IMG/VR virus record: IMGVR_UViG_3300035208_002115
DNA from: a virus
Lineage: Duplodnaviria > Caudoviricetes
Length of the DNA: 64,000 nt
Direction: 5' to 3' (one strand)
The position numbers and the translations under genes are program-made. Below, in pieces: positions 2,527 to 47,708 of the stretch. The notes below the pieces were generated by a model, which ran no database searches, was not told where the DNA came from, and worked only from the letters and a program-made list of their open reading frames with translations. Within the stretch, counting starts at the first letter, position 1. Each line of letters begins with the position of its first letter.

Positions 2527-2557
2527 TTTGTTGATTAAAAAATTAGTTATACTTTTG
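2527..2557 (+). promoter_or_regulatory. Bacteroidota-type sigmaA promoter
   Basis: TTTG (2527-2530) - 19 nt - TACTTTTG (2550-2557), matching the -33/-7 consensus. Confidence 0.7.
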
Positions 2558-2591
2558 GTTCTCTCAAATAAAAAAAATAAATCTACATAAT

Positions 2592-3545
2592 ATGAAAAAA
2601 AATAATTTAGCCTCTACTGGTTTAAGCTTATCACAGGCACAGTCAATTTCCAATTTGTGTAACCAAGCTGCAAAAGAAATTGAAAGAACAATTGATGAAA
2701 TAAATAATTGTTCTAAAACGATAAAGGTTAATTCAAAAGACCACACACTATTAGAATCACATCCACTACCTGAAAATATTATTGAACTTATTGAAAAGAA
2801 AGGTAGACTTCATGCTTGTCAGGCTTTTCTTATGGAAAATATTCGTGCCAAAGATAGTCTTTTAAATGAAGCTAAGATGGAATTACCTGATATTTCAGGT
2901 ATTGAAAAACCAAAACAACCAGAATATAAAGTAGCCAATATTATACCAAATGTTACTGACGACTGGGGTTGGTCTCAACTTTCTGCAACGGAAGTTAATG
3001 AATATACTGAGGCCGAGGCTATGGCTTCTCATATTGGTTTGTTTATCCATAAAGGTTCTAAATTAGATTTACTTCGTAGAGAGTTGTCGGTTATACCTTC
3101 TATCGAATGGTTCAATGTTGAAGATGGTAAAAAAACACCTGTCGAGATAAAAAAACACCACAACGCAGAAAAGTTGTTAAAACTACATGAAGAACTGGCT
3201 GCAAAACACCGAGATTATGAAAAACGTGTTAACTATTATAAGGCTAAAGTTAAGAACTTAAATACACAGGAGAATGCAGGTATCGCAAAAGTTAATGCAG
3301 ATGCTCAAACAGAGGTTGAAAAATACAATTCGGAACTTTCAGCAGAATACACCAATTTTCAAAAAATATATAGTGAAAAGGTTAAAACTGTTAAATCTGA
3401 GTTTGAAATAAAACGTCAGAATAATATTAAAAATATCGTTTCACTTCGTATTCAGGTTGACCTGCGCTTTCAGAAAACCGTTGATGAATTTCTGAAGAAC
3501 CTTGGTAAAGAAGAAGAAAAAAACGAAGAAAAAAACGAAGAATAA
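2592..3545 (+). CDS. hypothetical coiled-coil protein (317 aa)
   Basis: Long helical E/K/A-rich ORF with own promoter; followed by structured intergenic region. Confidence 0.8.
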   Translation: MKKNNLASTGLSLSQAQSISNLCNQAAKEIERTIDEINNCSKTIKVNSKDHTLLESHPLPENIIELIEKKGRLHACQAFLMENIRAKDSLLNEAKMELPDISGIEKPKQPEYKVANIIPNVTDDWGWSQLSATEVNEYTEAEAMASHIGLFIHKGSKLDLLRRELSVIPSIEWFNVEDGKKTPVEIKKHHNAEKLLKLHEELAAKHRDYEKRVNYYKAKVKNLNTQENAGIAKVNADAQTEVEKYNSELSAEYTNFQKIYSEKVKTVKSEFEIKRQNNIKNIVSLRIQVDLRFQKTVDEFLKNLGKEEEKNEEKNEE

Positions 3546-3550
3546 GACAT

Positions 3551-3906
3551 TGGGTGGTTAACAAAGGAAGTATAAACCTACTTTGTTAATCTTTGTGCTT
3601 AGTGAGGGGGTTCTAAAATATATATGCTTTAAAACAGCAATACATTTAAGAATGGTATCTTAAAACAGAAATTATCCGCTTCGGTGGATAAAAACCGCCC
3701 CTTCTGCAAATTAAAAATTAAGTTTTTTTGGATTTCTTTTACAAAAAAGACCAAGATGTAAAACAGATTGCACGTATACGTGAGAACTGGTTTACAAAAA
3801 AAGACTTAATCTTTGTCATTGCCTTTGAGTGGAAGGGGGTCTTTGATTTTGATATTGTATTTAGCATTAGCTATATACCTTCTTCACTAAGCAACCATTT
3901 TTTTTT
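3551..3906 (+). ncRNA. candidate structured ncRNA (unknown family)
   Basis: Long-range stem 3596-3611/3877-3893, inner stem 3698-3707/3829-3838, C(UUCG)G hairpin 3672-3691, hexamer repeats 3811-3870, ends in U-tract. Confidence 0.55.
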
Positions 3907-3930
3907 AATAACTAAACAAACTATATATGC

Positions 3931-3967
3931 AAGAATCCAGAACATGATGTTTTGGATTCTTTTTTTT
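3931..3967 (+). terminator. intrinsic terminator
   Basis: AAGAATCCAGAACA/TGTTTTGGATTCTT stem followed by T run. Confidence 0.65.
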
Positions 3968-4011
3968 AAACAAAACACGTTCTTTTAGATATAATTCTAA
4001 AAGGATTTGTT

Positions 4012-4302
4012 ATGTATTCAGACCATATTTTTACTATACTATATACAATGTGTGACATAGCTGATGTAGATTATTATTCAATAGATTTTCAGTCTGATGG
4101 GTGGTATTCTAAACATACATGGTCTAAAAATGAAGAATATGATTTTAAAGTGTGGTTTTATGAATACCTCAGAGATAATAAAGAGGCCAGAAAAGAAATA
4201 ATGAATTACCCGTCTACAAAATCAAAAAATATAGAAGAAGCGGTCAGTTTTTTTGTTAGTATGTATGGGTTTGTAACACGCAAAGATGACGAGAATAAAT
4301 AA
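4012..4302 (+). CDS. hypothetical protein
   Basis: ORF downstream of AAAC-N18-TATAA motif (3968-3994). Confidence 0.7.
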   Translation: MYSDHIFTILYTMCDIADVDYYSIDFQSDGWYSKHTWSKNEEYDFKVWFYEYLRDNKEARKEIMNYPSTKSKNIEEAVSFFVSMYGFVTRKDDENK

Positions 4303-38139: not shown

Positions 38140-38220
38140 GGCTTCATGGTGGAATGGCAGACACGTTAGTCTTAGGAACTAATACCGAAAGGCGTGAGGG
38201 TTCAAGTCCCTCTGAAGTCA
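38140..38220 (+). tRNA. tRNA-Leu(TAG)
   Basis: Cloverleaf; TTAGT-CT TAG GA-ACTAA; long variable arm. Confidence 0.9.
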
Positions 38221-38365
38221 CTAAAAAAAGAGTTCTTTGAAGAAATAAGGTTAGTAATCTGGACGCTTAACCAGCAGAAGGGTGAAGTTTCCTTGGAAGA
38301 AATTGATACAAACAGGCTTTGGTGGTTCTTAGCAATGTGTTGATAAAGTGACCGAAAACATAAAT

Positions 38366-38438
38366 GGAGCGTGTGGCGTAATTGGTAACGTGTATCCCTG
38401 TCACGGATAAGTTCGGGGTTCGAGTCCCCCACGCTCCG
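38366..38438 (+). tRNA. tRNA-Asp(GTC)
   Basis: GGAGCGT/ACGCTCC acceptor; TATCC-CT GTC AC-GGATA. Confidence 0.85.
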
Positions 38439-38446
38439 CTTAATTT

Positions 38447-38521
38447 GGTGCATTGGGCTTCGAGAAGGAGAACATGGTTGTCACCCATGTAAAATTAACG
38501 GATTGTCACCGTTATGCACCG
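38447..38521 (+). ncRNA. aberrant tRNA-Asp(GTC)-like RNA
   Basis: Perfect acceptor GGTGCAT/ATGCACC and GTC anticodon arm, but T-loop ATTGTCA instead of TTCRA. Confidence 0.6.
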
Positions 38522-38650
38522 CTTAAAATTCACAAAATGTGATTTACAAATTGTGAATTCTCGATTTGCTAATTGCGAATCGATGTTCTTTGACGTATTG
38601 GGAAAAGGTATTTAAAATACGCCAGTGTGGATAGGTTCACACTGGTAAAT

Positions 38651-38724
38651 GGGGGTGTAGCGTAGTTGGTTAGCGCAACTGACTGTTAATCAGTAGGTCG
38701 TAGGTTCAAGTCCTACCACCCCCG
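38651..38724 (+). tRNA. tRNA-Asn(GTT)
   Basis: Canonical cloverleaf; ACTGA-CT GTT AA-TCAGT. Confidence 0.9.
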
Positions 38725-38732
38725 CATAAAAT

Positions 38733-38817
38733 TTCGTTGTGGCAGAGTGGTCAATTGCAACAGGCTCATATCCTGTGGTTAGAAATAACTTCGTGGGTTC
38801 GAATCCCACTGACGAGA
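38733..38817 (+). tRNA. tRNA-Met/Ile2(CAT) with long variable arm
   Basis: ACAGG-CT CAT AT-CCTGT; GTGGG-TTCGAAT-CCCAC T arm. Confidence 0.75.
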
Positions 38818-38824
38818 CAATAAT

Positions 38825-38896
38825 GGACATGTAGCTCAGAGGCAGAGCGACACCCTGTTAAGGTGAGGGTCGGGATTTCGATATTCTCCTTGTCCG
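38825..38896 (+). tRNA. tRNA-Asn(GTT)
   Basis: CACC-CT GTT AA-GGTG; acceptor GGACATG/CTTGTCC. Confidence 0.8.
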
Positions 38897-38910
38897 CTTT
38901 TTAAAATATA

Positions 38911-38998
38911 TGCGAGGTGGTGTAACTGTTAACACGCTTGGCTCATAACCAAGAGACATCAAATGCTTGTGTGGGTTAGAATCCCACCTTCGCTCCCA
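38911..38998 (+). tRNA. tRNA-Met/Ile2(CAT), long variable region, encoded CCA
   Basis: CTTGG-CT CAT AA-CCAAG; T-loop TTAGAAT. Confidence 0.7.
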
Positions 38999-39095
38999 TT
39001 AACAATTTTTGTCGTAGTGGACGACAACCATTCAGGTAAGCTGGGTATCAAAATTTAACCATCAAGAAAGTGAGAGGCTTTCATTAAAAATATAT

Positions 39096-39169
39096 CGCAG
39101 GGTAGAGCAGTTGGTAGCTCGTCAGACTCATAATCTGAAGGTCGTGGCGTTCAAATCCCACCCCTGCAA
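39096..39169 (+). tRNA. tRNA-fMet(CAT)-like
   Basis: C1:A72 mismatch; TCAGA-CT CAT AA-TCTGA. Confidence 0.8.
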
Positions 39170-39175
39170 CTAAAT

Positions 39176-39247
39176 GCTCGGTTCGTATAGTGGTTAGTAC
39201 ACAACACCTTCAATGTTGTTACAGGGGTTCAATTCCCCTACCGAGTA
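39176..39247 (+). tRNA. tRNA-Glu(TTC)
   Basis: CAACA-CC TTC AA-TGTTG (C at position 33). Confidence 0.75.
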
Positions 39248-39255
39248 CAAAATTT

Positions 39256-39338
39256 GGATAGGTAGCGAAGTGGTCAAACGCAATTGACTGTAAATCAATC
39301 ACTTACGAGTTTCGCAGGTTCGAATCCTGCCCTGTCCA
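39256..39338 (+). tRNA. tRNA-Tyr(GTA)
   Basis: ATTGA-CT GTA AA-TCAAT; long variable arm. Confidence 0.9.
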
Positions 39339-39349
39339 CTTACTTAAAT

Positions 39350-39424
39350 GTTCGGTTCGTCTAACGGTCAAGGACGGCAGGTTTTCATCCTGTTAATAGG
39401 GGGGTTCGATTCCCCTACCGAATA
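39350..39424 (+). tRNA. tRNA-Glu(TTC)
   Basis: GCAGG-TT TTC AT-CCTGT. Confidence 0.85.
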
Positions 39425-39427
39425 CTA

Positions 39428-39763
39428 TTATCTCTCAGTATTAATCCAATAAGATTTGATATTTTCCTTGGCATCTTCGTCATATTCGATATATACTTCG
39501 CCTAAAGTTCTACCGTATTTTGCTAACCAAATACGTTTTTCATCGGCTAAACGATACCTGTTTTTCTTATCATATTCGACCGTTTCTATTCTATCGAGTT
39601 TACTATATAATTGTTTCTCGAATTCTTCTTTGGATATATGTTTAAATTGATTGTCTTTATGTTGTTCAACATAGGTTAAATATATAGCACGGTCAAAACG
39701 TTGTTGGTGTGTTTCACCGAAATCTTCATTTAAGAATTGGGAAAAGGATTGAACATTTTTCAT
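39428..39763 (-). CDS. hypothetical protein with capsid-targeting-like N-terminus
   Basis: Starts MKNVQSFSQFLNE; TAATATATA on minus strand at 39786-39794. Confidence 0.7.
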   Translation of the reverse strand: MKNVQSFSQFLNEDFGETHQQRFDRAIYLTYVEQHKDNQFKHISKEEFEKQLYSKLDRIETVEYDKKNRYRLADEKRIWLAKYGRTLGEVYIEYDEDAKENIKSYWINTER

Positions 39764-39842
39764 GATAAATAAAAATATTTTTTATTATATATTAAACATC
39801 TTACCATAATTTGACTATTTATAGAAAAATATTTTAATTAAT

Positions 39843-40025
39843 ATGATGGATGTTTCAGAATATAAAAGAAGAAGAAGACGTGCTTTAAAAGCAGTAAAGG
39901 CTCATACAAAATATAACAAACAAGAAGTGAAAGAATATTATGCTACTTGTAAATCCTATAAACAAACAATGGAACATTTTGGGATGACAAGTAAAGGCAC
40001 ACTTCATTGGAATTTAAATAATTAG
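39843..40025 (+). CDS. small basic HTH-like protein
   Basis: SYKQTMEHFGMTSKGTLHW resembles a helix-turn-helix. Confidence 0.55.
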   Translation: MMDVSEYKRRRRRALKAVKAHTKYNKQEVKEYYATCKSYKQTMEHFGMTSKGTLHWNLNN

Positions 40026-40108
40026 CCCTCATGTCGAAAGTTTGGTAGCCGAAGCAGTTTCAAACACTGTTGCTGAAAGGCGTGTAGGTTCGAGTCCTAC
40101 TGGGGGTA
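40025..40108 (+). tRNA. tRNA-Leu(CAA)
   Basis: GCAGT-TT CAA AC-ACTGT; long variable arm. Confidence 0.85.
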
Positions 40109-40140
40109 CATACTATATTGATAAAAAATAATAATTTTAT

Positions 40141-40995
40141 GTGATTAAAAAATGTGAGAATTATGATAAAGAAACATTAGATAAAATAATACAAAAATGT
40201 TTTTCAATAGCTGGAGTTTGTAGAGAATTAAATATAAAAGCAATTGGTGGTAATTATAAAACTATAAAATATTATATCAATGCTTATAATCTTGATATAT
40301 CACATTTTACTGGTAAAGGCTGGAATATAGGTGAAAGATATAATAACGTTAAAAATAAAATCCCTTTAAGTGAAATATTAGTTGAGAATTCCACATATAC
40401 AAATACACATTTATTAAAGAAAAGACTTGTTAAAGAAGGTTATTTTGAATATAAATGTAATGAATGTGGATTAACTGAATGGTGTAATAAACCAATTTCC
40501 TTGCATTTAGACCATATTAATGGCGATAATTTAGACCATAGAATAGAGAACCTAAGATTATTATGTCCGAATTGTCATAGTCAAACAGAAACTTACTGTT
40601 CTAAAAATAAAAAAAGTTCAAAAAATACATTAAGAATACATAATTTTATTGAAAATAAAGATTTCTTAATCAATAGAGAATCAAAGAAACAAAAACATTA
40701 TTGTGAATGTGGTAAAGAAATAGAAAAAAGGGCTAAAAAATGCAGAGAATGTTATAAAAAAGATAGAACTGAAAGTGTTAAACAAAAAAATCATTGTGCA
40801 TGTGGTAAAGTGATTAAAAATGAATCAGTGATGTGTTTGGATTGTTTACATAAACATAACAGAAAAGTGGAAAGACCATCATATGAACAATTAATTTTAG
40901 AAATTAATGAATCTTCTTATACCTCAGTGGGTAAAAAATATAATGTTGCAGCTAAAACCATTAAAAAATGGAAATTAGCTTATGAAAGAATTTAA
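40141..40995 (+). CDS. free-standing HNH (homing) endonuclease with zinc ribbons
   Basis: CNECG...LHLDHING...NLRLLCPNCHSQT; C-terminal CxCG repeats and HTH-like end. Confidence 0.85.
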   Translation: MIKKCENYDKETLDKIIQKCFSIAGVCRELNIKAIGGNYKTIKYYINAYNLDISHFTGKGWNIGERYNNVKNKIPLSEILVENSTYTNTHLLKKRLVKEGYFEYKCNECGLTEWCNKPISLHLDHINGDNLDHRIENLRLLCPNCHSQTETYCSKNKKSSKNTLRIHNFIENKDFLINRESKKQKHYCECGKEIEKRAKKCRECYKKDRTESVKQKNHCACGKVIKNESVMCLDCLHKHNRKVERPSYEQLILEINESSYTSVGKKYNVAAKTIKKWKLAYERI

Positions 40996-40999
40996 AAAC

Positions 41000-41295
41000 G
41001 CTCCTATGGTGGAATGGCAGACACGATGGACTTATACAATTTGAGTGCTTATAGAGAAATCTGTAAAGTAGAACTTGTCAAATTCGATGAAACCTATAAA
41101 ATGGTAATATCGAGCCAACCCATCTTTTTTTAGATGGAAGTGTGTAGAGAGTAGACGGCAAGCACCTAAGTCGAAAGATATGGTGAAGGTGTATTCCAGA
41201 CCACAAAATCAATTTGATGCGATGAAAGTCGTAGTGGTAAGAAAATCCATTGGGCAGTAATGTTCGTATCGGTTCAAGTCCGATTAGGAGTACCA
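41000..41295 (+). tRNA. tRNA-Leu(TAA) interrupted by a group I intron
   Basis: Exons 41000-41033 and 41242-41295 join to ATGGA-CT TAA AA-TCCAT; encoded CCA. Confidence 0.85.
41034..41241 (+). ncRNA. group I intron (208 nt, no ORF)
   Basis: U-G pair in P1 (ACTT/GAGT), R/S-like GTAGAGAGTAGACGG and AAGGTGTATTCC, terminal G; insertion after U34. Confidence 0.8.
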
Positions 41296-41361
41296 AAAAA
41301 CAGGATAACAAATGGGTTATCCTGTTTTAAAACAAAACATTTTATTTTCACTATATTAATA

Positions 41362-41706
41362 ATGCAAAACATTGATGTTTTAATTTTCATAAAAAGTATA
41401 AGAGAATCCTTTAGTAGTTCAGTAACTGTTTATACATATGGTAATTGCTACCAATTTTATGAAATATTAAAAACAATATATCCAGAAGCCGAAGCTTATT
41501 ATGATGGCAGTCATGTCTGGACAAAAATAGGTGATAAATATTATGATATAACAGGTGAATTAAAGCTTGAAGGTAAGTTTGAAAACATAAATTTAAGACC
41601 AATTGTAGATAATGAACAAATTGCATCATTATCTAAGAATAAATGGTCAGATGAAAGAAGAAAAGATTATTGTCAAGAATACAAAAACAAATTATTAAAT
41701 AAATGA
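41362..41706 (+). CDS. hypothetical phage protein
   Basis: GNCYQF...HVWTKIGDKYYDITG; start moved to 41362. Confidence 0.7.
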   Translation: MQNIDVLIFIKSIRESFSSSVTVYTYGNCYQFYEILKTIYPEAEAYYDGSHVWTKIGDKYYDITGELKLEGKFENINLRPIVDNEQIASLSKNKWSDERRKDYCQEYKNKLLNK

Positions 41707-41918
41707 AAAGAGGTACGATAGAGCAACAAGAAAGATTTTCTAAATTAGATATACAGAAAATGTATCCAAATGAATGTGAAAATTATGATATTGTAGCACT
41801 TATGGAAATGTGGCATTTATATAATAGTGAACCGAAACGTGGTGATTGGATTGATGGTAAAATAATTGAAGAAGTGACGAATGATGGGACAGCATACTTC
41901 ATCTTATTAAAGAAATAG
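41703..41918 (+). CDS. hypothetical protein
   Basis: ATGA overlap. Confidence 0.6.
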   Translation: MKRGTIEQQERFSKLDIQKMYPNECENYDIVALMEMWHLYNSEPKRGDWIDGKIIEEVTNDGTAYFILLKK

Positions 41919-41953
41919 ACAATATTTATAAAATATACTTGCAAGTCAAAGTG

Positions 41954-42069
41954 AAATACCCCAACCGAAAGACAAGTAGGTTACTGGTGCAGAGGTGGTT
42001 CGAGTCCCCGAACAGACCAAGGTCGTGCTTGGCTTGTGCAGGTTCGCAAAAAACAGTTTGGGGGTATTT
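41954..42069 (+). ncRNA. candidate structured ncRNA
   Basis: Closing stem AAATACCCCAA/TTGGGGGTATTT; internal T-loop-like GGTTCGAGTCC; GC-rich. Confidence 0.4.
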
Positions 42070-42074
42070 TTAAT

Positions 42075-42149
42075 AGTGCGTTAGTTCAGTGGTAGAATAC
42101 AAGTTTGTCACACTTGGGGTCAGGGGTTCAAATCCCCTACGCACTGCCA
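42075..42149 (+). tRNA. tRNA-Asp(GTC)
   Basis: CAAGT-TT GTC AC-ACTTG; encoded CCA. Confidence 0.9.
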
Positions 42150-42334
42150 ATGAAAGCTGATAATAAAAACAACCCTTGAATAGGTTGTAAAGGTTGCTAA
42201 ATAATGGATGAATTGCAATCTAAAACAAGAATCGACTATTTCCATTATTATTTTCAGCTTTTATTTAAAACAAAATATTTATTTTTGTATATAAATAATA
42301 AATTTTTTTAGTTTAATTAATTAAGTAATAATTT

Positions 42335-42643
42335 ATGGCACAAATACCAAATGAAGTAATTGATGTTGTTAGAAAAAAACACAACGCTCAGATAACAACA
42401 ATTGAAAATGAATTTGATAATTATATATGGAGATTATCAGCAATAATTACAGGGAGTGCTAACAGAGCTGATAGTTCAAAAATAGCCACCGAAGTATCTA
42501 AATATTTGCAATTAGTTAAAAAAGAGTTTATTCTTAATTGGTGCAATGTTGAATTCTTAGAAGCTGTTTCTCAGCATCAAAGTGATTTTTTAGATAAAAA
42601 TGGGTTTGACTCTGAAGAAGTTGTTAAAGAATTTAAATATTAA
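42335..42643 (+). CDS. hypothetical protein
   Basis: ORF downstream of AAAC-N18-TATAA (42268-42294). Confidence 0.7.
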   Translation: MAQIPNEVIDVVRKKHNAQITTIENEFDNYIWRLSAIITGSANRADSSKIATEVSKYLQLVKKEFILNWCNVEFLEAVSQHQSDFLDKNGFDSEEVVKEFKY

Positions 42644-42780
42644 AATTTATAACGGACTTTTGTTATTTCATTTTATAAATAAAAACGTTCTTTCAAATAA
42701 TCATTTCTAAAAAGTAGATTGGCCATACGAGTTAGTCGTGTCCCTTGGAGTTTCTTAGGTAAACAAAAAACACGAAACTT

Positions 42781-43170
42781 ATGGAAACAAACTATTTATT
42801 TTTAAATGATTACGCAGGGTTCACTTATGAAGCGGTTGTTGAGGACATAGTTGCCAACTATCAGGTGTCACAATCTTTTGTTGATAACTATCGTATCTTG
42901 GTGGCACATCTTTCTGGTGATGGTGGGTACGAAGAATCTTCTTATTTCTTATTGGTTGAGAAATCTACTGGTAATTTATTTGAAGTTTCTGGTGGTCACT
43001 GTTCCTGTTATGGTTTCGAAGGCCAGTTTGAGCCAGAGATTACTTCGATAGAGTATCTTATTTCAGAACAGTCCTACTTCGGTAGAGACCCTGAAGTAAA
43101 GAAACAAATCGAGATTTGTTTGGTGAAATGGATTCGTTACTTGAAATTGAAAGAAATATTCGAGTTCTAA
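42781..43170 (+). CDS. hypothetical protein with C-terminal RxxKLxxI tag
   Basis: GGHCSCYGFEGQ core; ends IRYLKLKEIFEF. Confidence 0.7.
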   Translation: METNYLFLNDYAGFTYEAVVEDIVANYQVSQSFVDNYRILVAHLSGDGGYEESSYFLLVEKSTGNLFEVSGGHCSCYGFEGQFEPEITSIEYLISEQSYFGRDPEVKKQIEICLVKWIRYLKLKEIFEF

Positions 43171-43222
43171 ATGAAAGTTTAGGACTCGATTTTTTATATA
43201 TAAAAAGAAAACAACATATTAA

Positions 43223-43780
43223 ATGATTTTTAGTTATATATCATTTATCAAAGAAAACATAAAACATCAATATAAATTTTATAAAAATATTGATAATATT
43301 GTTGATGGTGAACCATTAGTTTATTATAATGTTCCATTTGAATTAGGCGAAAAAGGTATAGGTTTTAGTGATACAGAAGATTGGAAACATTATTTAGGTA
43401 ACCAATATGTTTATGATTATATTAAAGACATTGATATAAAAGAAGCTTTAAAAGAAGACTTATCTAATATAAATATATCTGTTGATTGGACTTCTATAAA
43501 AGAAGATGATATAATAAACAATATATCAGCATATCAAAATAAAAATAAACATTCTTTAAGAATTGCCAAATTAGTTAAAGAGATGTTAGATAACAAACCA
43601 ATAAGACCAGTTTCAATGTTTTTTGATGCGATGTCGTATAATTACGATATAAAGAATAACATTGAAGATGGAAATCATAGAATAAGAGCATTACAATATT
43701 TAAAATATGATGGGTTTCCAGCTTACATATATGGTGGACATTCAAAATATCTTATTGAATATTTAAATCAAAATATTTAG
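43223..43780 (+). CDS. ParB/Srx-like domain protein; capsid-targeting-like N-terminus
   Basis: IEDGNHRIRAL motif; TTTATATATA upstream. Confidence 0.65.
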   Translation: MIFSYISFIKENIKHQYKFYKNIDNIVDGEPLVYYNVPFELGEKGIGFSDTEDWKHYLGNQYVYDYIKDIDIKEALKEDLSNINISVDWTSIKEDDIINNISAYQNKNKHSLRIAKLVKEMLDNKPIRPVSMFFDAMSYNYDIKNNIEDGNHRIRALQYLKYDGFPAYIYGGHSKYLIEYLNQNI

Positions 43781-43891
43781 ATGGGTTTTTTATCAATCTA
43801 AGCATCTATATTTATTATAGAATTTTTTTTATAATATTTTTCATATTATTTTTGGTTCATTATTTTTACTACAAACCAAAAATTTACTACT

Positions 43892-44155
43892 ATGTTTGAG
43901 AACGTGATACTTGCAGAAATAGAAGGTGTTAAATATATACTTTCTGAAGATATAAAATATGGTGATAAAGTTGTTGGGTATTTTGAAGTTGGTAAATATT
44001 GGTTAACTGATTGTATAGCGAAGAACAACTTTGATGAAGGTGACATCAAAAACCAGTTTTTGATTTTCAAAGATGGTATTAGTTGTGGTGTAGCCAACAA
44101 TCCATTCAAACACCAAAGATGGTTCAAGGTAATAGGAACTCTTAAAGAAGTATGA
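43892..44155 (+). CDS. hypothetical protein
   Basis: ORF downstream of TATTTTTG -7 element (43847). Confidence 0.65.
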   Translation: MFENVILAEIEGVKYILSEDIKYGDKVVGYFEVGKYWLTDCIAKNNFDEGDIKNQFLIFKDGISCGVANNPFKHQRWFKVIGTLKEV

Positions 44156-44210
44156 TGGTACTAATAAAATATTAGACTTCTTTTTATATATAGAAATAAA
44201 AATATTTTTT

Positions 44211-44966
44211 ATGGGGTATATTAAAAAATACGATGAAGTGGTTAATGAGCATAAATCCTCATTCAAGGTTTGTATAAAATGGGCGCATGGTGATGATGAT
44301 TTCTTCACCGATAAAATATATTATTTTTCTACTGAAGAAATGATGAGGAAGTATTTGGATTTTATTTTTGATGTTCGAAAATTTATACCAAACAGAGGTT
44401 ATAAAAATCTTGGTTATTTTGAAGATGGATACCACGAAGGAAAAGGAGAATGGGTTCGAAAAATAGCTGAAAAACACAATCCAGAATTTATTGATTATAT
44501 GGAGATTGACGGGTCTGGCCCAAGTGACCATTATGCAAATATTGAAGACATTTATGTTAAAATAGGTAATAAAAGAAAATTTATCGTCTGGTCAGAAGCA
44601 TTAAATACTAACATTATAAGTTTACCAGAAAAAGGTTCTATAATAGATACCAATTCTGGACAAATATGTGGACATGGTAAATACACATTTGGTGGTAAAA
44701 CCAGTGACTATTTATACCATTGGGATTTGAAAAAAATATATGATGAGAAAAAAGAAGGTAAATATACCCCAATGAAACTTGAAATATTAGATATTAAGAT
44801 AGCTAATTATAGCAATTATATTAAAGATTATGACGCTTTTAAATACGAGGTGTTGTGTAAGATACCAGAAGGATTAGTAACAACCGAAATTGATGGATAC
44901 GACCCAGATTTTGAGAAAAAGTATAATAAAGAAAAGTGGGATGGTATGTCACTATATTTAGTTTAG
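44211..44966 (+). CDS. hypothetical protein with capsid-targeting-like N-terminus
   Basis: Starts MGYIKKYDEVVNE; TTTATATATA at 44183-44192. Confidence 0.7.
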   Translation: MGYIKKYDEVVNEHKSSFKVCIKWAHGDDDFFTDKIYYFSTEEMMRKYLDFIFDVRKFIPNRGYKNLGYFEDGYHEGKGEWVRKIAEKHNPEFIDYMEIDGSGPSDHYANIEDIYVKIGNKRKFIVWSEALNTNIISLPEKGSIIDTNSGQICGHGKYTFGGKTSDYLYHWDLKKIYDEKKEGKYTPMKLEILDIKIANYSNYIKDYDAFKYEVLCKIPEGLVTTEIDGYDPDFEKKYNKEKWDGMSLYLV

Positions 44967-45082
44967 CGCATATTTTTGATTATATCATATTCAGCGCATA
45001 TTTTTATCATAGGATTTTTTTTACAGAACATTTCTTAATATTTTTGGTATGTTAATTTTATTACAAACCAAAAAGTTCTGAT

Positions 45083-45274
45083 ATGAAAAGGATTAGAAAA
45101 TTTAAAGTTACTTCGACCTTAAAAAGTGGTAAGACAGTAAGTCAGCCGTCTTTTGGTAGAAAAGATTTAAATGTTGTAATTTCAGCTTTAATATCAGATG
45201 TGGATGTAGAATCAGTGAACATTTCCAAGGAAGGTTTTGCCGATGCATCAGATATTAAGATTTGGAATTTATAA
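45083..45274 (+). CDS. hypothetical protein
   Basis: ORF downstream of TATTTTTG (45039). Confidence 0.6.
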   Translation: MKRIRKFKVTSTLKSGKTVSQPSFGRKDLNVVISALISDVDVESVNISKEGFADASDIKIWNL

Positions 45275-45291
45275 TTTAAAAATATACTGAT

Positions 45292-45513
45292 ATGAAAACA
45301 CCGTTGAAATTCTACATTGGTGAAAGGAGTAATCCACAGTTAAAAAAGTCTTATTTTGTTACCTATGGCAGGTTAACAAAAAAGGATGCTCAGAAAAAGG
45401 AAGATTGTCTTTACGGCAGTATGTCTTTAACCCCGTATGAAACCGAGGAAGAATATAACACTGCAATATCAAAACTGGAAGAAGAAGGGTTTAATATTAA
45501 AAATAGTGTTTGA
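45292..45513 (+). CDS. hypothetical protein
   Basis: Packed ORF. Confidence 0.65.
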   Translation: MKTPLKFYIGERSNPQLKKSYFVTYGRLTKKDAQKKEDCLYGSMSLTPYETEEEYNTAISKLEEEGFNIKNSV

Positions 45514-45516
45514 GTC

Positions 45517-45804
45517 ATGAAAAAAGTAAGACTAATGAAACGGGTTATGAAATGTTTGATGATTTTTGTAGTATTGTCAATAGTTTCTATGATGTACATT
45601 GCTTTTAACTTCGAAGCGTATAGAGGTATTACGTTTTTACTATCGAGTTTATCGATTTTAACTACTGCTGTTATATTTTACACTTTTTATCTGGTTGTAA
45701 AATATGTCTTGAATCTTGACCAAGATACAGAAAAATCGGAAGATGTTGGTAATATATTAATGTCTTTTGTTTACAACGGGAAGAAACATATTAAAATTGT
45801 TTAA
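45517..45804 (+). CDS. small membrane protein
   Basis: Two hydrophobic helices. Confidence 0.6.
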   Translation: MKKVRLMKRVMKCLMIFVVLSIVSMMYIAFNFEAYRGITFLLSSLSILTTAVIFYTFYLVVKYVLNLDQDTEKSEDVGNILMSFVYNGKKHIKIV

Positions 45805-45806
45805 CT

Positions 45807-45998
45807 ATGAATATATTTAATTTTTTCAAAAGAAATTCATCATTTGAAATAGGTGAATATGTTCGCTTAGATAAAGGAAAAAGTAGTGACCAATTGGTTA
45901 AATTGACTGAAATATATGATGGTGGTAAGGTTTGTTATATTGAAGGACACTATTGGTCTGGTACAGTGGATATGAAACGAATAAGTAAAGAGGTATGA
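45807..45998 (+). CDS. hypothetical protein
   Basis: Packed ORF. Confidence 0.6.
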   Translation: MNIFNFFKRNSSFEIGEYVRLDKGKSSDQLVKLTEIYDGGKVCYIEGHYWSGTVDMKRISKEV

Positions 45999-46297
45999 AA
46001 AAATTAAAAGATATCAAGTACGAAATACTTAATGATATACTTATTGTAGTATTCATTTTAAGCCAAGTAATACCCATTGTGTGGATGGGTGTATATTTGT
46101 ATAAGAATAGTGATAGGGTAGAGGAATATTACACAGTTACAGTCTCCAATATTGATGCTGACCATGTTATAATGAATAAGAGATTAGATGGTTATGAATT
46201 AATAGGTCGGGATTATTGTCAAAATGGTGAGCCAAATGAATTATATTCTGGTGATAATATGGTTACTATTTCGATGATTAAATTGAAAAACCCATAA
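45995..46297 (+). CDS. hypothetical membrane-anchored protein
   Basis: One hydrophobic helix. Confidence 0.6.
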   Translation: MKKLKDIKYEILNDILIVVFILSQVIPIVWMGVYLYKNSDRVEEYYTVTVSNIDADHVIMNKRLDGYELIGRDYCQNGEPNELYSGDNMVTISMIKLKNP

Positions 46298-46304
46298 CAA
46301 AAAC

Positions 46305-46385
46305 GGTGGAATGCCTGAGTGGTTGAAGGGGGCGGTCTGCAAAACCGCTACGAAAGTCTCGTGGGTTCGAATCCCACTTCCACCT
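46305..46385 (+). tRNA. tRNA-Cys(GCA) with extended variable arm
   Basis: GCGGT-CT GCA AA-ACCGC; U73 discriminator. Confidence 0.85.
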
Positions 46386-46404
46386 CAAAACAAAAATTAT
46401 CAAT

Positions 46405-46659
46405 ATGACACCAGAAGATGTTCTAAAAAATTGCATTAAATTCGAGGTTAAAGATTTTGAACGAATCTTTATAGAATCTGGATATAAAAGTTCTGATAGT
46501 GTAATAAGTTTAGAGGATGCTATGTCAGCTATAAAAGAATATATGGAATATGCTGATAATGTTGCTCTACATTGTATCCAGTTGGCGACAAATTTAAACT
46601 ATGGTAGTAGATGCTCACTGGAATATTTGCAGAAAGCAAAAGATAAAATGAAAAAGTAA
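46405..46659 (+). CDS. hypothetical protein
   Basis: ORF. Confidence 0.6.
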   Translation: MTPEDVLKNCIKFEVKDFERIFIESGYKSSDSVISLEDAMSAIKEYMEYADNVALHCIQLATNLNYGSRCSLEYLQKAKDKMKK

Positions 46660-46757
46660 AAAGAAAGGAGAATACAAATTATGATTGATTTTAGTTAGAT
46701 ACTCACCTACGTGGTGAGTTTTTTATTACGTATTATTAAAAAATTAAATACTAAAAA

Positions 46758-47408
46758 ATGAAACAATATCCACACATAGAGTATTGGAATCAATGTAAGT
46801 TTGGTTCTACCATCTGGGGATTTGATAAATTAGATGGCTCTAATATCCGAGCCGAGTGGAGAAAAAAAAGAGGGTTTTATAAATTCGGGACTAAACAACA
46901 AATGATTGATACCCGACACCCACAATTCGGTGAAGCTGTCACACTATTTCTAAACAAGTATAATGAAGGGTTATCTAAAATATTCACTGATGATAAGTAT
47001 TACAGAAACGTTCAAAACTTTGTAGTATTTTCAGAATATTTTGGTGAAAATTCATTTGCTGGATATCATATACCAGAAGATAAAAAAGACATTTTACTTT
47101 TCGATATCAGCCTTTATAAAAAAGGTTGGGTTAAACCAAAAGACTTTATAAACGATTTTGAGCATCTTGGGATACCAAGACTAATATATCATGGTAATTA
47201 TAATAAAAAGCTTATACGTGATGTAAAAGAAGGTATTTTTGATGTAAAAGAAGGTATAGTCGTTAAAGGTTTAAGACAAACAAAAGGTGACGAACTGGTT
47301 TGGTTAACTAAAATAAAGACCAATGAATGGTTAAAAAGATTGAAGAACAAATTCGGTGAGAAGTATCTTTTGAAAGAAGTAAATTACGATAAAGAATTGT
47401 TAGATTAA
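46758..47408 (+). CDS. RNA ligase-like nucleotidyltransferase
   Basis: Motif I KLDGSN, EYFG, FDI, EGIVVK, KIKT. Confidence 0.75.
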   Translation: MKQYPHIEYWNQCKFGSTIWGFDKLDGSNIRAEWRKKRGFYKFGTKQQMIDTRHPQFGEAVTLFLNKYNEGLSKIFTDDKYYRNVQNFVVFSEYFGENSFAGYHIPEDKKDILLFDISLYKKGWVKPKDFINDFEHLGIPRLIYHGNYNKKLIRDVKEGIFDVKEGIVVKGLRQTKGDELVWLTKIKTNEWLKRLKNKFGEKYLLKEVNYDKELLD

Positions 47409-47438
47409 TATGGGTGGGCTTTATGCCCACTCAAATAT

Positions 47439-47524
47439 GGATAGGTAGCAAAGTGGTTAAATGCGCTTGACTGTAAATCAAGTCCCTTCGGGGTTCGTAG
47501 GTTCGAATCCTACCCTGTCCACCA
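47439..47524 (+). tRNA. tRNA-Tyr(GTA)
   Basis: CTTGA-CT GTA AA-TCAAG; encoded CCA. Confidence 0.9.
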
Positions 47525-47528
47525 ATAT

Positions 47529-47611
47529 GAGTAGGTATGCAAATGGCGAAGCAAGCGGTCTGTAAAACCGTGACGTAAGAGACACTGGGGGTTCAAATCC
47601 CTCTCTACTCA
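47529..47611 (+). tRNA. tRNA-Tyr(GTA)
   Basis: GCGGT-CT GTA AA-ACCGT. Confidence 0.85.
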
Positions 47612-47708
47612 CTTTTAAATATCCTTTTACCCATACATGTCAATTATATCCCATAAAAATATTATTTCTTAATATATTTTTTCATATTTTTGTTTAATAA
47701 AACATGAT

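Follow-up and report, generated by a model that had tools for sequence, protein, structure and literature searches.

We analyzed a 64,000-nucleotide stretch of DNA (hereafter the window) that corresponds to bases 93,370-157,369 of the 675,678-bp virus record IMGVR_UViG_3300035208_002115 of IMG/VR, a megaphage genome with a GC content of ~27%. The locus in question comprises a gene for a 317-aa protein with no assigned function or fold and, directly after it on the same strand, a structured RNA of ~345 nt that carries two blocks of tandem hexamers (Table 1). A preliminary description, made from the letters of this DNA only, had placed a structured element of ~350 nt behind the gene, and this is borne out, far beyond what chance would give: compared with shuffled sequences, the fold of the 365 nt that follow the stop codon has z = -5.2 on the + strand (-6.1 on the - strand), and the helices covary among relatives. 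With members of ~265-375 nt, the family is a previously undescribed structured non-coding RNA.

Table 1 Features of the gene-RNA locus, in window coordinates.
Feature	Position	Strand	Description
Promoter motif	~2553-2560	+	Bacteroidota-type TAnnTTTG (TACTTTTG) ahead of the 317-aa open reading frame (ORF)
Protein gene	2592-3545	+	317 aa, ORF call; function and fold unassigned
Structured RNA	3553-3897	+	~345 nt, directly after the 317-aa ORF
P0, 5' strand	3553-3555	+	GGU, within conserved A-G-G-U just past the stop codon; partner A-C-Y 3894-3896
H1 hairpin	3556-3591	+	10-bp stem 3556-3565/3582-3591, purine-rich internal loop, 2 bp, A-N-A-A tetraloop
P1, 5' strand	3596-3610	+	Long-range closing helix; partner 3879-3893
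Variable region VR1	3611-3691	+	~25 to 140 nt among relatives; lineage-specific hairpins
C(UUCG)G hairpin	3673-3690	+	Inside VR1
P2, 5' strand	3698-3704	+	Conserved C-G-C plus pyrimidine run; partner 3831-3838
Inner domain	3718-3809	+	Helices P3-P6b
P3	3718-3727/3800-3809	+	Inner domain
P4	3728-3731/3751-3754	+	Inner domain, hairpin
P5	3758-3762/3791-3795	+	Inner domain
P6	3764-3766/3787-3789	+	Inner domain
P6b	3771-3774/3779-3782	+	Inner domain
Hexamer block 1	3810-3828	+	Three tandem hexamers, UCUUUG UCAUUG CCUUUG, between P3 and P2
P2, 3' strand	3831-3838	+	Followed by nearly invariant G-G-U-C at 3838-3841
Hexamer block 2	3842-3871	+	UUUGAU UUUGAU AUUGUA UUUAGC AUUAGC; consensus W-U-U-R-N-Y ("UUUGAC")
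U-A-Y-A-Y-A element	3872-3877	+	Conserved, (nearly) invariant columns, in block 2 register, just ahead of the P1 3' strand
P1, 3' strand and tail	3879-3897	+	P1 3' strand (3879-3893), then conserved R-A-C-Y tail; 3894-3896 form the P0 3' strand
Nine-T run	3898-3906	+	After the RNA; likely 3' end or weak terminator
Intrinsic terminator	3931-3970	+	Canonical; hairpin 3931-3961 (14-pair stem, 3-nt loop) plus T-run; outside the conserved RNA

RNAalifold predicted three helices, H1, P1 and P2, with compensatory changes at 33 of 35 predicted pairs. Changes on both sides were seen at all 10 pairs of the H1 stem and at 15 of the 15 pairs of P1, where 99.4% and 98.1% of alignment cells, respectively, are paired, and P2 covaries at 7/7 pairs with 97-100% of cells paired in 96 sequences. 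P1 and P2 correspond to the two outer long-range stems of the preliminary description, which the covariation thus confirms. The columns of P0 are nearly invariant; 87% of their cells are compatible with pairing and compensatory change is absent from close relatives, while in the distant relative L050 the helix is 7 bp long (AAGGUGG/CCACCUU). At the other end of the RNA, the A and C of the tail are invariant in 31 sequences. With P0 added to the three helices, compensatory changes stood at 33 of 38 base pairs and 96.5% of cells were paired, compared with 42-55% when the partners were slid against each other, and none of 500 shuffles matched the observed pairing values. Since H1, P1 and P2 contain ~100 G·U cells when read on the + strand and only ~25 non-standard ones, the transcript is the + strand, the same as that of the gene. 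In the apical part of H1 (3566-3581) A·C covaries with G·U beside conserved purines (A-A/G-A-G ... C/U-G-A), a pattern that suggests a tandem sheared-purine or kink-like motif for protein binding or docking.

The C(UUCG)G hairpin noted earlier is present, in a region that varies in sequence and in length. P3, previously described as the innermost stem, can form in the window, but its covariation is weak and the P3/P4 arm is missing from about two thirds of the relatives; P4 is well paired where it is present. In a model-based alignment of 96 sequences, which was fitted to the covariance model and is hence biased towards it, P2, P5 and P6 are 95-100% paired and covary, and P6b is 68% paired and also covaries. 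P6 carries a conserved internal loop, (G/A)UUA(C/U) / GAUAA. The covariance model, R1, spans the inner 180 positions rather than the full-length RNA. It found exactly one copy in 97 of the 98 sources searched, missing only L050, and recovered seven of eight distant relatives. No second copy of the RNA was found in the 675-kb genome.

The two hexamer blocks lie on the 3' side of the structure. The hexamers between 3811 and 3870 had been described as standing in one register, and in the window they do read in this way; across the two blocks, however, the register is not conserved, as the spacing between them is 15, 16 or 17 nt in relatives. Alignment of the regions downstream of homologous genes, which recovered the conserved structure, showed that the 6-nt period is kept within each block separately. 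Block 1 has 3 hexamers here and 3-6 among relatives, and its mean predicted unpaired probability is 0.53, compared with 0.34 across the remaining RNA. Block 2 is bounded by the nearly invariant GGUC that ends P2 and by the conserved UAYAYA element. Its length is exactly 30 nt in all 84 distinct close relatives and 24 or 30 nt in eight distant ones, which indicates that it changes by whole hexamers. Among the 84 sequences the first three positions of the hexamer are U/A (94%), U (97%) and U (87%); position 4 is G (78%) or A (21%) and never C, position 5 can be any base (A in 46%), and position 6 is C (50%) or U (28%) and never G. The hexamers are the best-conserved segment of the RNA, with 70-78% nucleotide identity where the adjacent protein is ~50% identical, and they are kept in the relative L174, whose RNA region has a GC content of 50%. 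Elsewhere in the 675-kb genome, comparable periodic NTT[G/A] arrays bring the number of such places to 8 on both strands, the TTG-rich one being found here only. Sites that match at 4 of 5 strict hexamers number 9-12 per strand in the genome and 2-3 in Markov controls. A search of the genome for a trans target of the conserved AGGUCUUUGAC returned only scattered near-complements with one mismatch, and no cluster or array of them.

We then asked how far the gene and the RNA occur together. Scanning viral contigs with the 317-aa protein gave 39 loci with 49-87% protein identity. The DNA 3' of the stop codon could be aligned in all of them, and the RNA is present at 39/39, counting L003, where the contig is cut after the 5' half of the RNA. 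The reverse search, with a DNA pattern derived from block 2 alone, matched at least 118 viral-contig stretches, of which 80 were listed. Among these listed matches, 77 carry the RNA, and all 72 that have enough upstream DNA are immediately preceded by the protein gene in the same orientation; the five gene-less RNA loci among them have less than 200 nt of upstream sequence. Over all fetched data the gene is present at 149 of 158 RNA loci. Eight homologs among the most distant of the listed family hits (E values of 1e-29 to 1e-48 with the family profile) show the same architecture in a gene-free downstream gap of 233-495 nt. In most of the listed loci the RNA begins no more than ~20 nt from the stop codon. 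At L036:4014-5420, a 468-aa YD/RHS-like repeat protein (YTYDERGN...) is inserted between the protein gene and an intact RNA, which starts exactly at the TAA stop of the inserted gene. Behind the RNA, this contig encodes a peptide deformylase that has a SEC-C-like motif at its C-terminus. In all, the RNA occurs in at least 150 viral contigs, from phages of ~114 kb to megaphages of 640-675 kb, and is tied to an unannotated protein family of ~800 sequence clusters.

A promoter of its own was considered for the RNA and rejected, because the scan found none: the promoter motif precedes the RNA in just 4 of 80 relatives. The terminal U-tract of the preliminary description is present as the nine-T run, and a run of at least four T follows the RNA in 47/80 relatives. 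The rarity of the promoter motif together with the T-run indicates that the RNA is made as the tail of the transcript of the gene.

The product of this gene had been taken for a coiled coil, but according to the confident AlphaFold2 model (predicted local distance difference test score 85.6) it is not a plain one. The model combines long helices with two beta-hairpins in a layout that roughly amounts to a duplicated helix-hairpin-helix unit. A hidden Markov model search of a library of 1.8 billion proteins placed 794 clusters in the family at E <= 1e-3, and within the species-genome collection the protein occurs in metagenome-assembled contigs only. Polar residues (S, Q, N, H, R, K) make up most of its invariant positions, with motifs including GLSLSQAQSISNLCNQ and HIGxFIHK. 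The protein matched no Pfam or PHROG family, and nothing informative was returned by a sequence search of the PDB, by Foldseek against the PDB, by VIA-align wide or by the ESM Atlas (structure and features). Weak matches to ClyA, BipD and GPCR-like proteins were set aside as generic helical-bundle similarity. Among 50,697 GenBank records of cultured phages there was no DNA or protein match.

The preliminary description had also offered a cryptic coding or template segment reached by recoding, which we reject. A small protein or recoded extension would use either an 86-aa ORF with a TTG start at 3728-3988 (+), which overlaps the 3' half of the RNA, or the FVIAFEWKGVFDFDIVFSISY frame, and the NTT-RNY frame is indeed open through block 2 in 33 of 35 relatives. 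This openness, however, is a by-product that the hexamer pattern gives automatically. In the same frame the median relative has a stop ~13 codons upstream of block 2 and one relative has it only 3 codons upstream; the frame is closed 3-13 codons before the block in about half of the relatives, and since the NTT-RNY pattern cannot spell ATG, GTG or TTG there is no start inside the block. Neither a conserved start codon nor a conserved in-frame stop belongs to the repeat frame, and the spacing of 15-17 nt means that the two blocks share no common frame. Hexamer positions 2-4 vary least and position 5 varies most, whereas codons would show the reverse, and no reverse transcriptase (RT) is encoded nearby. 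The 86-aa ORF crosses two T-runs, among them the nine-T run, and the terminator hairpin; it is spurious and arises from the hexamer pattern. No convincing ORF was opened by alternative genetic codes (TAG=Q; table 4, TGA=W) either. We give the coding explanation next to no weight. A covariance model for the RNA family would stop spurious calls such as this 86-aa ORF.

Comparison with described RNA classes agreed with the earlier remark that the element matches no recognised family. In Rfam 15 no family reached its gathering threshold at the RNA, and only tRNAs passed within the window. The best permissive match over 3400-4100 was VrrA (E = 0.03; 26.4 bits against a cut-off of 50), which aligns best over the 3931-3961 terminator hairpin and the T-rich stretch before it. 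A transfer-messenger RNA (tmRNA) was rejected, as ARAGORN found none, no tmRNA family of Rfam matched and no conserved stop ends the repeat frame. The ACCA at the 3' end is no tRNA-like end, since it is not conserved (the third position is C in 5/31 and U in 25/31 sequences). A retron msr/msd or another RT-templated RNA was dismissed because neither the window's ORFs next to the RNA nor the conserved neighbour clusters contain an RT domain, and a TnpB/IscB omega RNA because the protein belongs to no Pfam family and both ends of the RNA are conserved and paired. We found no description of this RNA in the literature searched. A 2023 catalogue of candidate viral RNAs holds only motifs of 30-151 nt (PMC10690425), and fragments of the present RNA may be among them.

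Several known systems nonetheless resemble it in part. In its mode of action it would stand closest to the multivalent protein-binding RNAs, namely CsrB/RsmZ, the TRAP and HutP repeat sites and the T4 gene 32 operator, although it lacks the defining features of each. CsrB and RsmZ are likewise structured scaffolds with many short single-stranded copies of a motif, and they hold several protein copies at once, as the present RNA would. In CsrB, however, irregularly spaced hairpin loops display the motif, which is GGA, whereas here W-U-U-R-N-Y is arranged head to tail in fixed-length arrays within asymmetric internal loops of a phage-encoded RNA derived from a 3' untranslated region (UTR); with repeats that lack GGA and no Rfam match, a CsrB/RsmZ sponge was rejected and the likeness is one of mechanism only. 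The TRAP site of the Bacillus trp leader and the HutP site share with our RNA tandem short repeats of fixed 5-7-nt period, and in them each repeat is taken by one protomer of an oligomeric RNA-binding protein, as would be the case here. TRAP reads (G/U)AG triplets separated by 2-3-nt spacers in a 5' leader that switches a terminator. In contrast, the present RNA has a UUG core (in ~78% of hexamers, UAG being the minority form), a strict 6-nt period and two blocks in a large scaffold downstream of the gene, and a TRAP-type site was therefore rejected too. The operator in the mRNA of T4 gene 32 is a folded nucleation element beside unstructured repeats that a phage single-strand-binding protein could occupy cooperatively, but it is a 5' leader with a pseudoknot that controls translation of the binder's own gene. 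The present element instead lies 3' of its gene, and the AlphaFold2 model of the upstream protein has no OB fold. TnpB omega RNA, OLE RNA with OapA and Y RNA with Ro60 are, like this one, large structured RNAs beside one protein gene, which implies a ribonucleoprotein (RNP). Unlike in these gene-linked guide or scaffold RNAs, there is no RuvC, Ro60 or OapA match and no variable 3' guide, and both ends are conserved and paired.

The reading we favour, although we hold it as somewhat short of probable, is that of a co-transcribed scaffold RNA with multivalent 6-nt docking sites for a single-strand RNA-binding protein. P0, H1, the 15-bp P1 and P2 surround the inner multi-helix domain in a rod-like scaffold, which holds two 3'-side strands of tandem W-U-U-R-N-Y hexamers (3-6 in block 1 and 4-5 in block 2) that lack a conserved pairing partner. 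Each hexamer would serve as a single docking unit, bound by a single-strand RNA-binding protein that covers ~6 nt, and the RNA might assemble or sequester roughly eight protomers side by side. The partner of first choice would be the co-encoded ~300-aa protein; gene and RNA would in that case specify a two-part RNP module. Unit-wise recognition of the hexamers is suggested by the rigid, covarying scaffold, the conserved strands that lack a conserved partner, the 6-nt period, the length changes by whole hexamers and the survival of the motif against base composition. A protein would be the simplest reader, and the co-encoded protein is the first candidate because its gene is absolutely linked to the RNA. 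While the analysis shows the structure, the strand, the periodicity, the length change by whole hexamers, the gene linkage and the lack of coding potential, it only leads us to infer that a protein docks, which protein this is and what effect might follow. Of the earlier suggestion of a non-coding RNA with periodic binding sites for an oligomer of the upstream protein, the structure, the periodicity and the strict gene linkage thus hold, and the identity of the binder is a proposal. A narrower version, in which the gene product and the RNA make up a new bipartite phage RNP with one protomer per six bases and the RNA as assembly ruler or template, is possible but doubtful. If it is true, such a ruler RNP would set a protein oligomer of defined size (~4-5 plus 3-6 units), and an RNP type without a described counterpart would be widespread in large phages of Bacteroidota-like hosts.

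A number of observations weigh against protein docking as we propose it. The adjacent protein is mildly acidic (pI ~5.6-7.2), and its predicted structure contains no recognisable RNA-binding fold. The thermodynamic fold predicts nearly the same degree of pairing for block 2 as for the other parts of the RNA (unpaired probability 0.38 versus 0.34 elsewhere). We looked for a partner strand of block 2 in VR1, which lies opposite it, and found complementarity no better than with shuffled VR1 (mean z -0.22); because of this, the predicted pairing is put down to base composition, and it is not conserved. Even where the protein homologs have diverged strongly, the hexamer consensus is almost constant, a pattern that a universal host reader would fit at least equally well, and the linkage could arise simply from the reliance of the RNA on the promoter of the gene.

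One such host reader would be a cold-shock-domain (CSD; OB-fold) protein, for which the RNA would act as a sponge or recruiter, titrating or concentrating about eight cold-shock protein (Csp) molecules. B. subtilis CspB has the consensus 5'-GTCTTTG/T-3' and strongly prefers C as the third base (PMC1904285). When divided into overlapping heptamers, the repeats give G-W-C-N-U-U-G, which agrees with this consensus at the G, C and UUG positions; an exact GUCUUUG stands in the consensus at the start of block 2 (where GGUCUUUG is nearly invariant) and in block 1, and the C or U favoured at hexamer position 6 falls on heptamer position 3, the C position of CspB, although heptamer position 2 is here A more often than U. 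The cold-shock domain has six conserved base-binding subsites, which correspond to the 6-nt period, and binds DNA and RNA similarly, but its sequence selectivity is limited and its binding to RNA is ~10-fold weaker than to DNA (PMC7825780). The stability of the motif across very divergent phage clades, the relative with 50% GC included, and the acidity of the adjacent protein also speak for a host reader, and the phage genome encodes no CSD or RRM protein whereas Bacteroides has both. The likeness nevertheless goes back to one in-vitro study of the single-stranded DNA specificity of a Bacillus protein, and a Csp sponge leaves unexplained why the RNA is constantly placed after one gene. We know of no natural RNA with tandem Csp sites of this kind, and consider the explanation unlikely. 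The RNA could also be a cis-acting 3'-UTR element of the upstream gene with no trans function, which would shield the message from 3' exonucleases, define its 3' end jointly with the T-run or couple termination of translation at the stop codon to the folding of P0 and H1. The absolute gene linkage, the position of the RNA, which in most listed loci begins no more than ~20 nt after the stop codon, the T-run after 47 of 80 RNAs and the absence of an own promoter all fit. However, 33 of the 80 relatives lack the T-run, the RNA of L036 is intact despite the 468-aa gene inserted after the protein gene, and a 300-nt multi-helix RNA with length-quantised conserved repeats exceeds what a stabiliser or terminator needs, so that we rank a purely cis-acting role lower still.

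Two further explanations concern U-rich or promoter-like signals. The RNA might be a decoy for a host reader of U-rich single strands, either RNase E or, as a mimic resembling 6S RNA, the sigma factor or RNA polymerase of Bacteroidota, with its promoter motifs TTTG and TAnnTTTG. RNase E cleaves at the motif RN↓WUU, and hexamer positions 5-6-1-2-3 read R (62%)-N-W (94%)-U (97%)-U (87%); yet the most conserved purine, at position 4, lies outside that motif. For the polymerase, the 3.5-fold enrichment of TAnnTTTG before phage ORFs shows that the host uses TTTG-type promoters, but the TA half of this -7 motif is not conserved in the repeats and no 6S family of Rfam matched. Both ideas are resemblances, and we regard a decoy as improbable. 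It is more improbable again that the sequence acts as a DNA-level element (a promoter for the genes that follow, an origin or a protein-binding iteron array) with an incidental RNA structure, even though the consensus TTGAC, a 17-nt spacer and TATATA resemble a sigma-70 promoter and both strands fold well (z = -5.2 and -6.1). The compensatory changes and the abundance of G·U pairs on one strand show selection on RNA; moreover, conservation of the -35-like hexamer does not exceed that of the adjoining hexamers, a consensus promoter scan reported no site in the blocks, and the host appears to use Bacteroidota-type rather than sigma-70-type promoters.

Whatever reads the hexamers, the RNA represents a new family that displays its repeats in a novel way, and there is a substantial chance that it belongs to a new type of RNP. 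Large structured RNAs with comparable covariation are seldom found, and past finds such as the OLE, GOLLD, ROOL, 6S and omega RNAs each opened new biology. With the adjacent protein as partner, the module would represent a new RNP architecture; with a host RNA chaperone, it would be a phage RNA sponge for a global regulator. Since the rows of hexamers change by whole units, the docking model that we favour can be tested concretely and cheaply.

As to the wider setting, the ORFs around the RNA locus in the window match phage families, for example YopX and a PHROG hydrolase. The conserved neighbours of the protein gene are unannotated small proteins, an HNH endonuclease and an SF2 helicase ~5 kb downstream. 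Beside two distant homologs of the module (L050:4687-5978 and L170:1-1199) we observed genes of the Ter system: one homolog has TerD, HAD and PRTase as neighbours, the other vWA-TerF-like and TerC. Neither TerD nor TerC occurs in the 675-kb genome that contains the window. The host of this phage is probably a member of the Bacteroidota, because TAnnTTTG, the promoter motif of that phylum, is enriched upstream of the phage ORFs: it occurs within 80 nt upstream in 107 of 771 ORFs and in 31 of 771 random 80-mers, an enrichment of ~3.5-fold, with a peak 20-40 nt ahead of the start codons. The gene-RNA module is also held by L041 (JBAZIW010000001.1), a sequence of 362,763 bp filed as a metagenome-assembled genome of Candidatus Paceibacterota. 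It is equal in size to the IMG/VR jumbo-phage contig L088 (IMGVR_UViG_3300029288_000055, 362,763 bp) and is probably a phage genome binned as a bacterium. Finally, the window contains 16 tRNA genes at 38140-47612, including three each for tRNA-Met, tRNA-Asp and tRNA-Tyr, and most of them stand in a single array at 38.1-39.4 kb, which causes a local rise in GC to 0.39.

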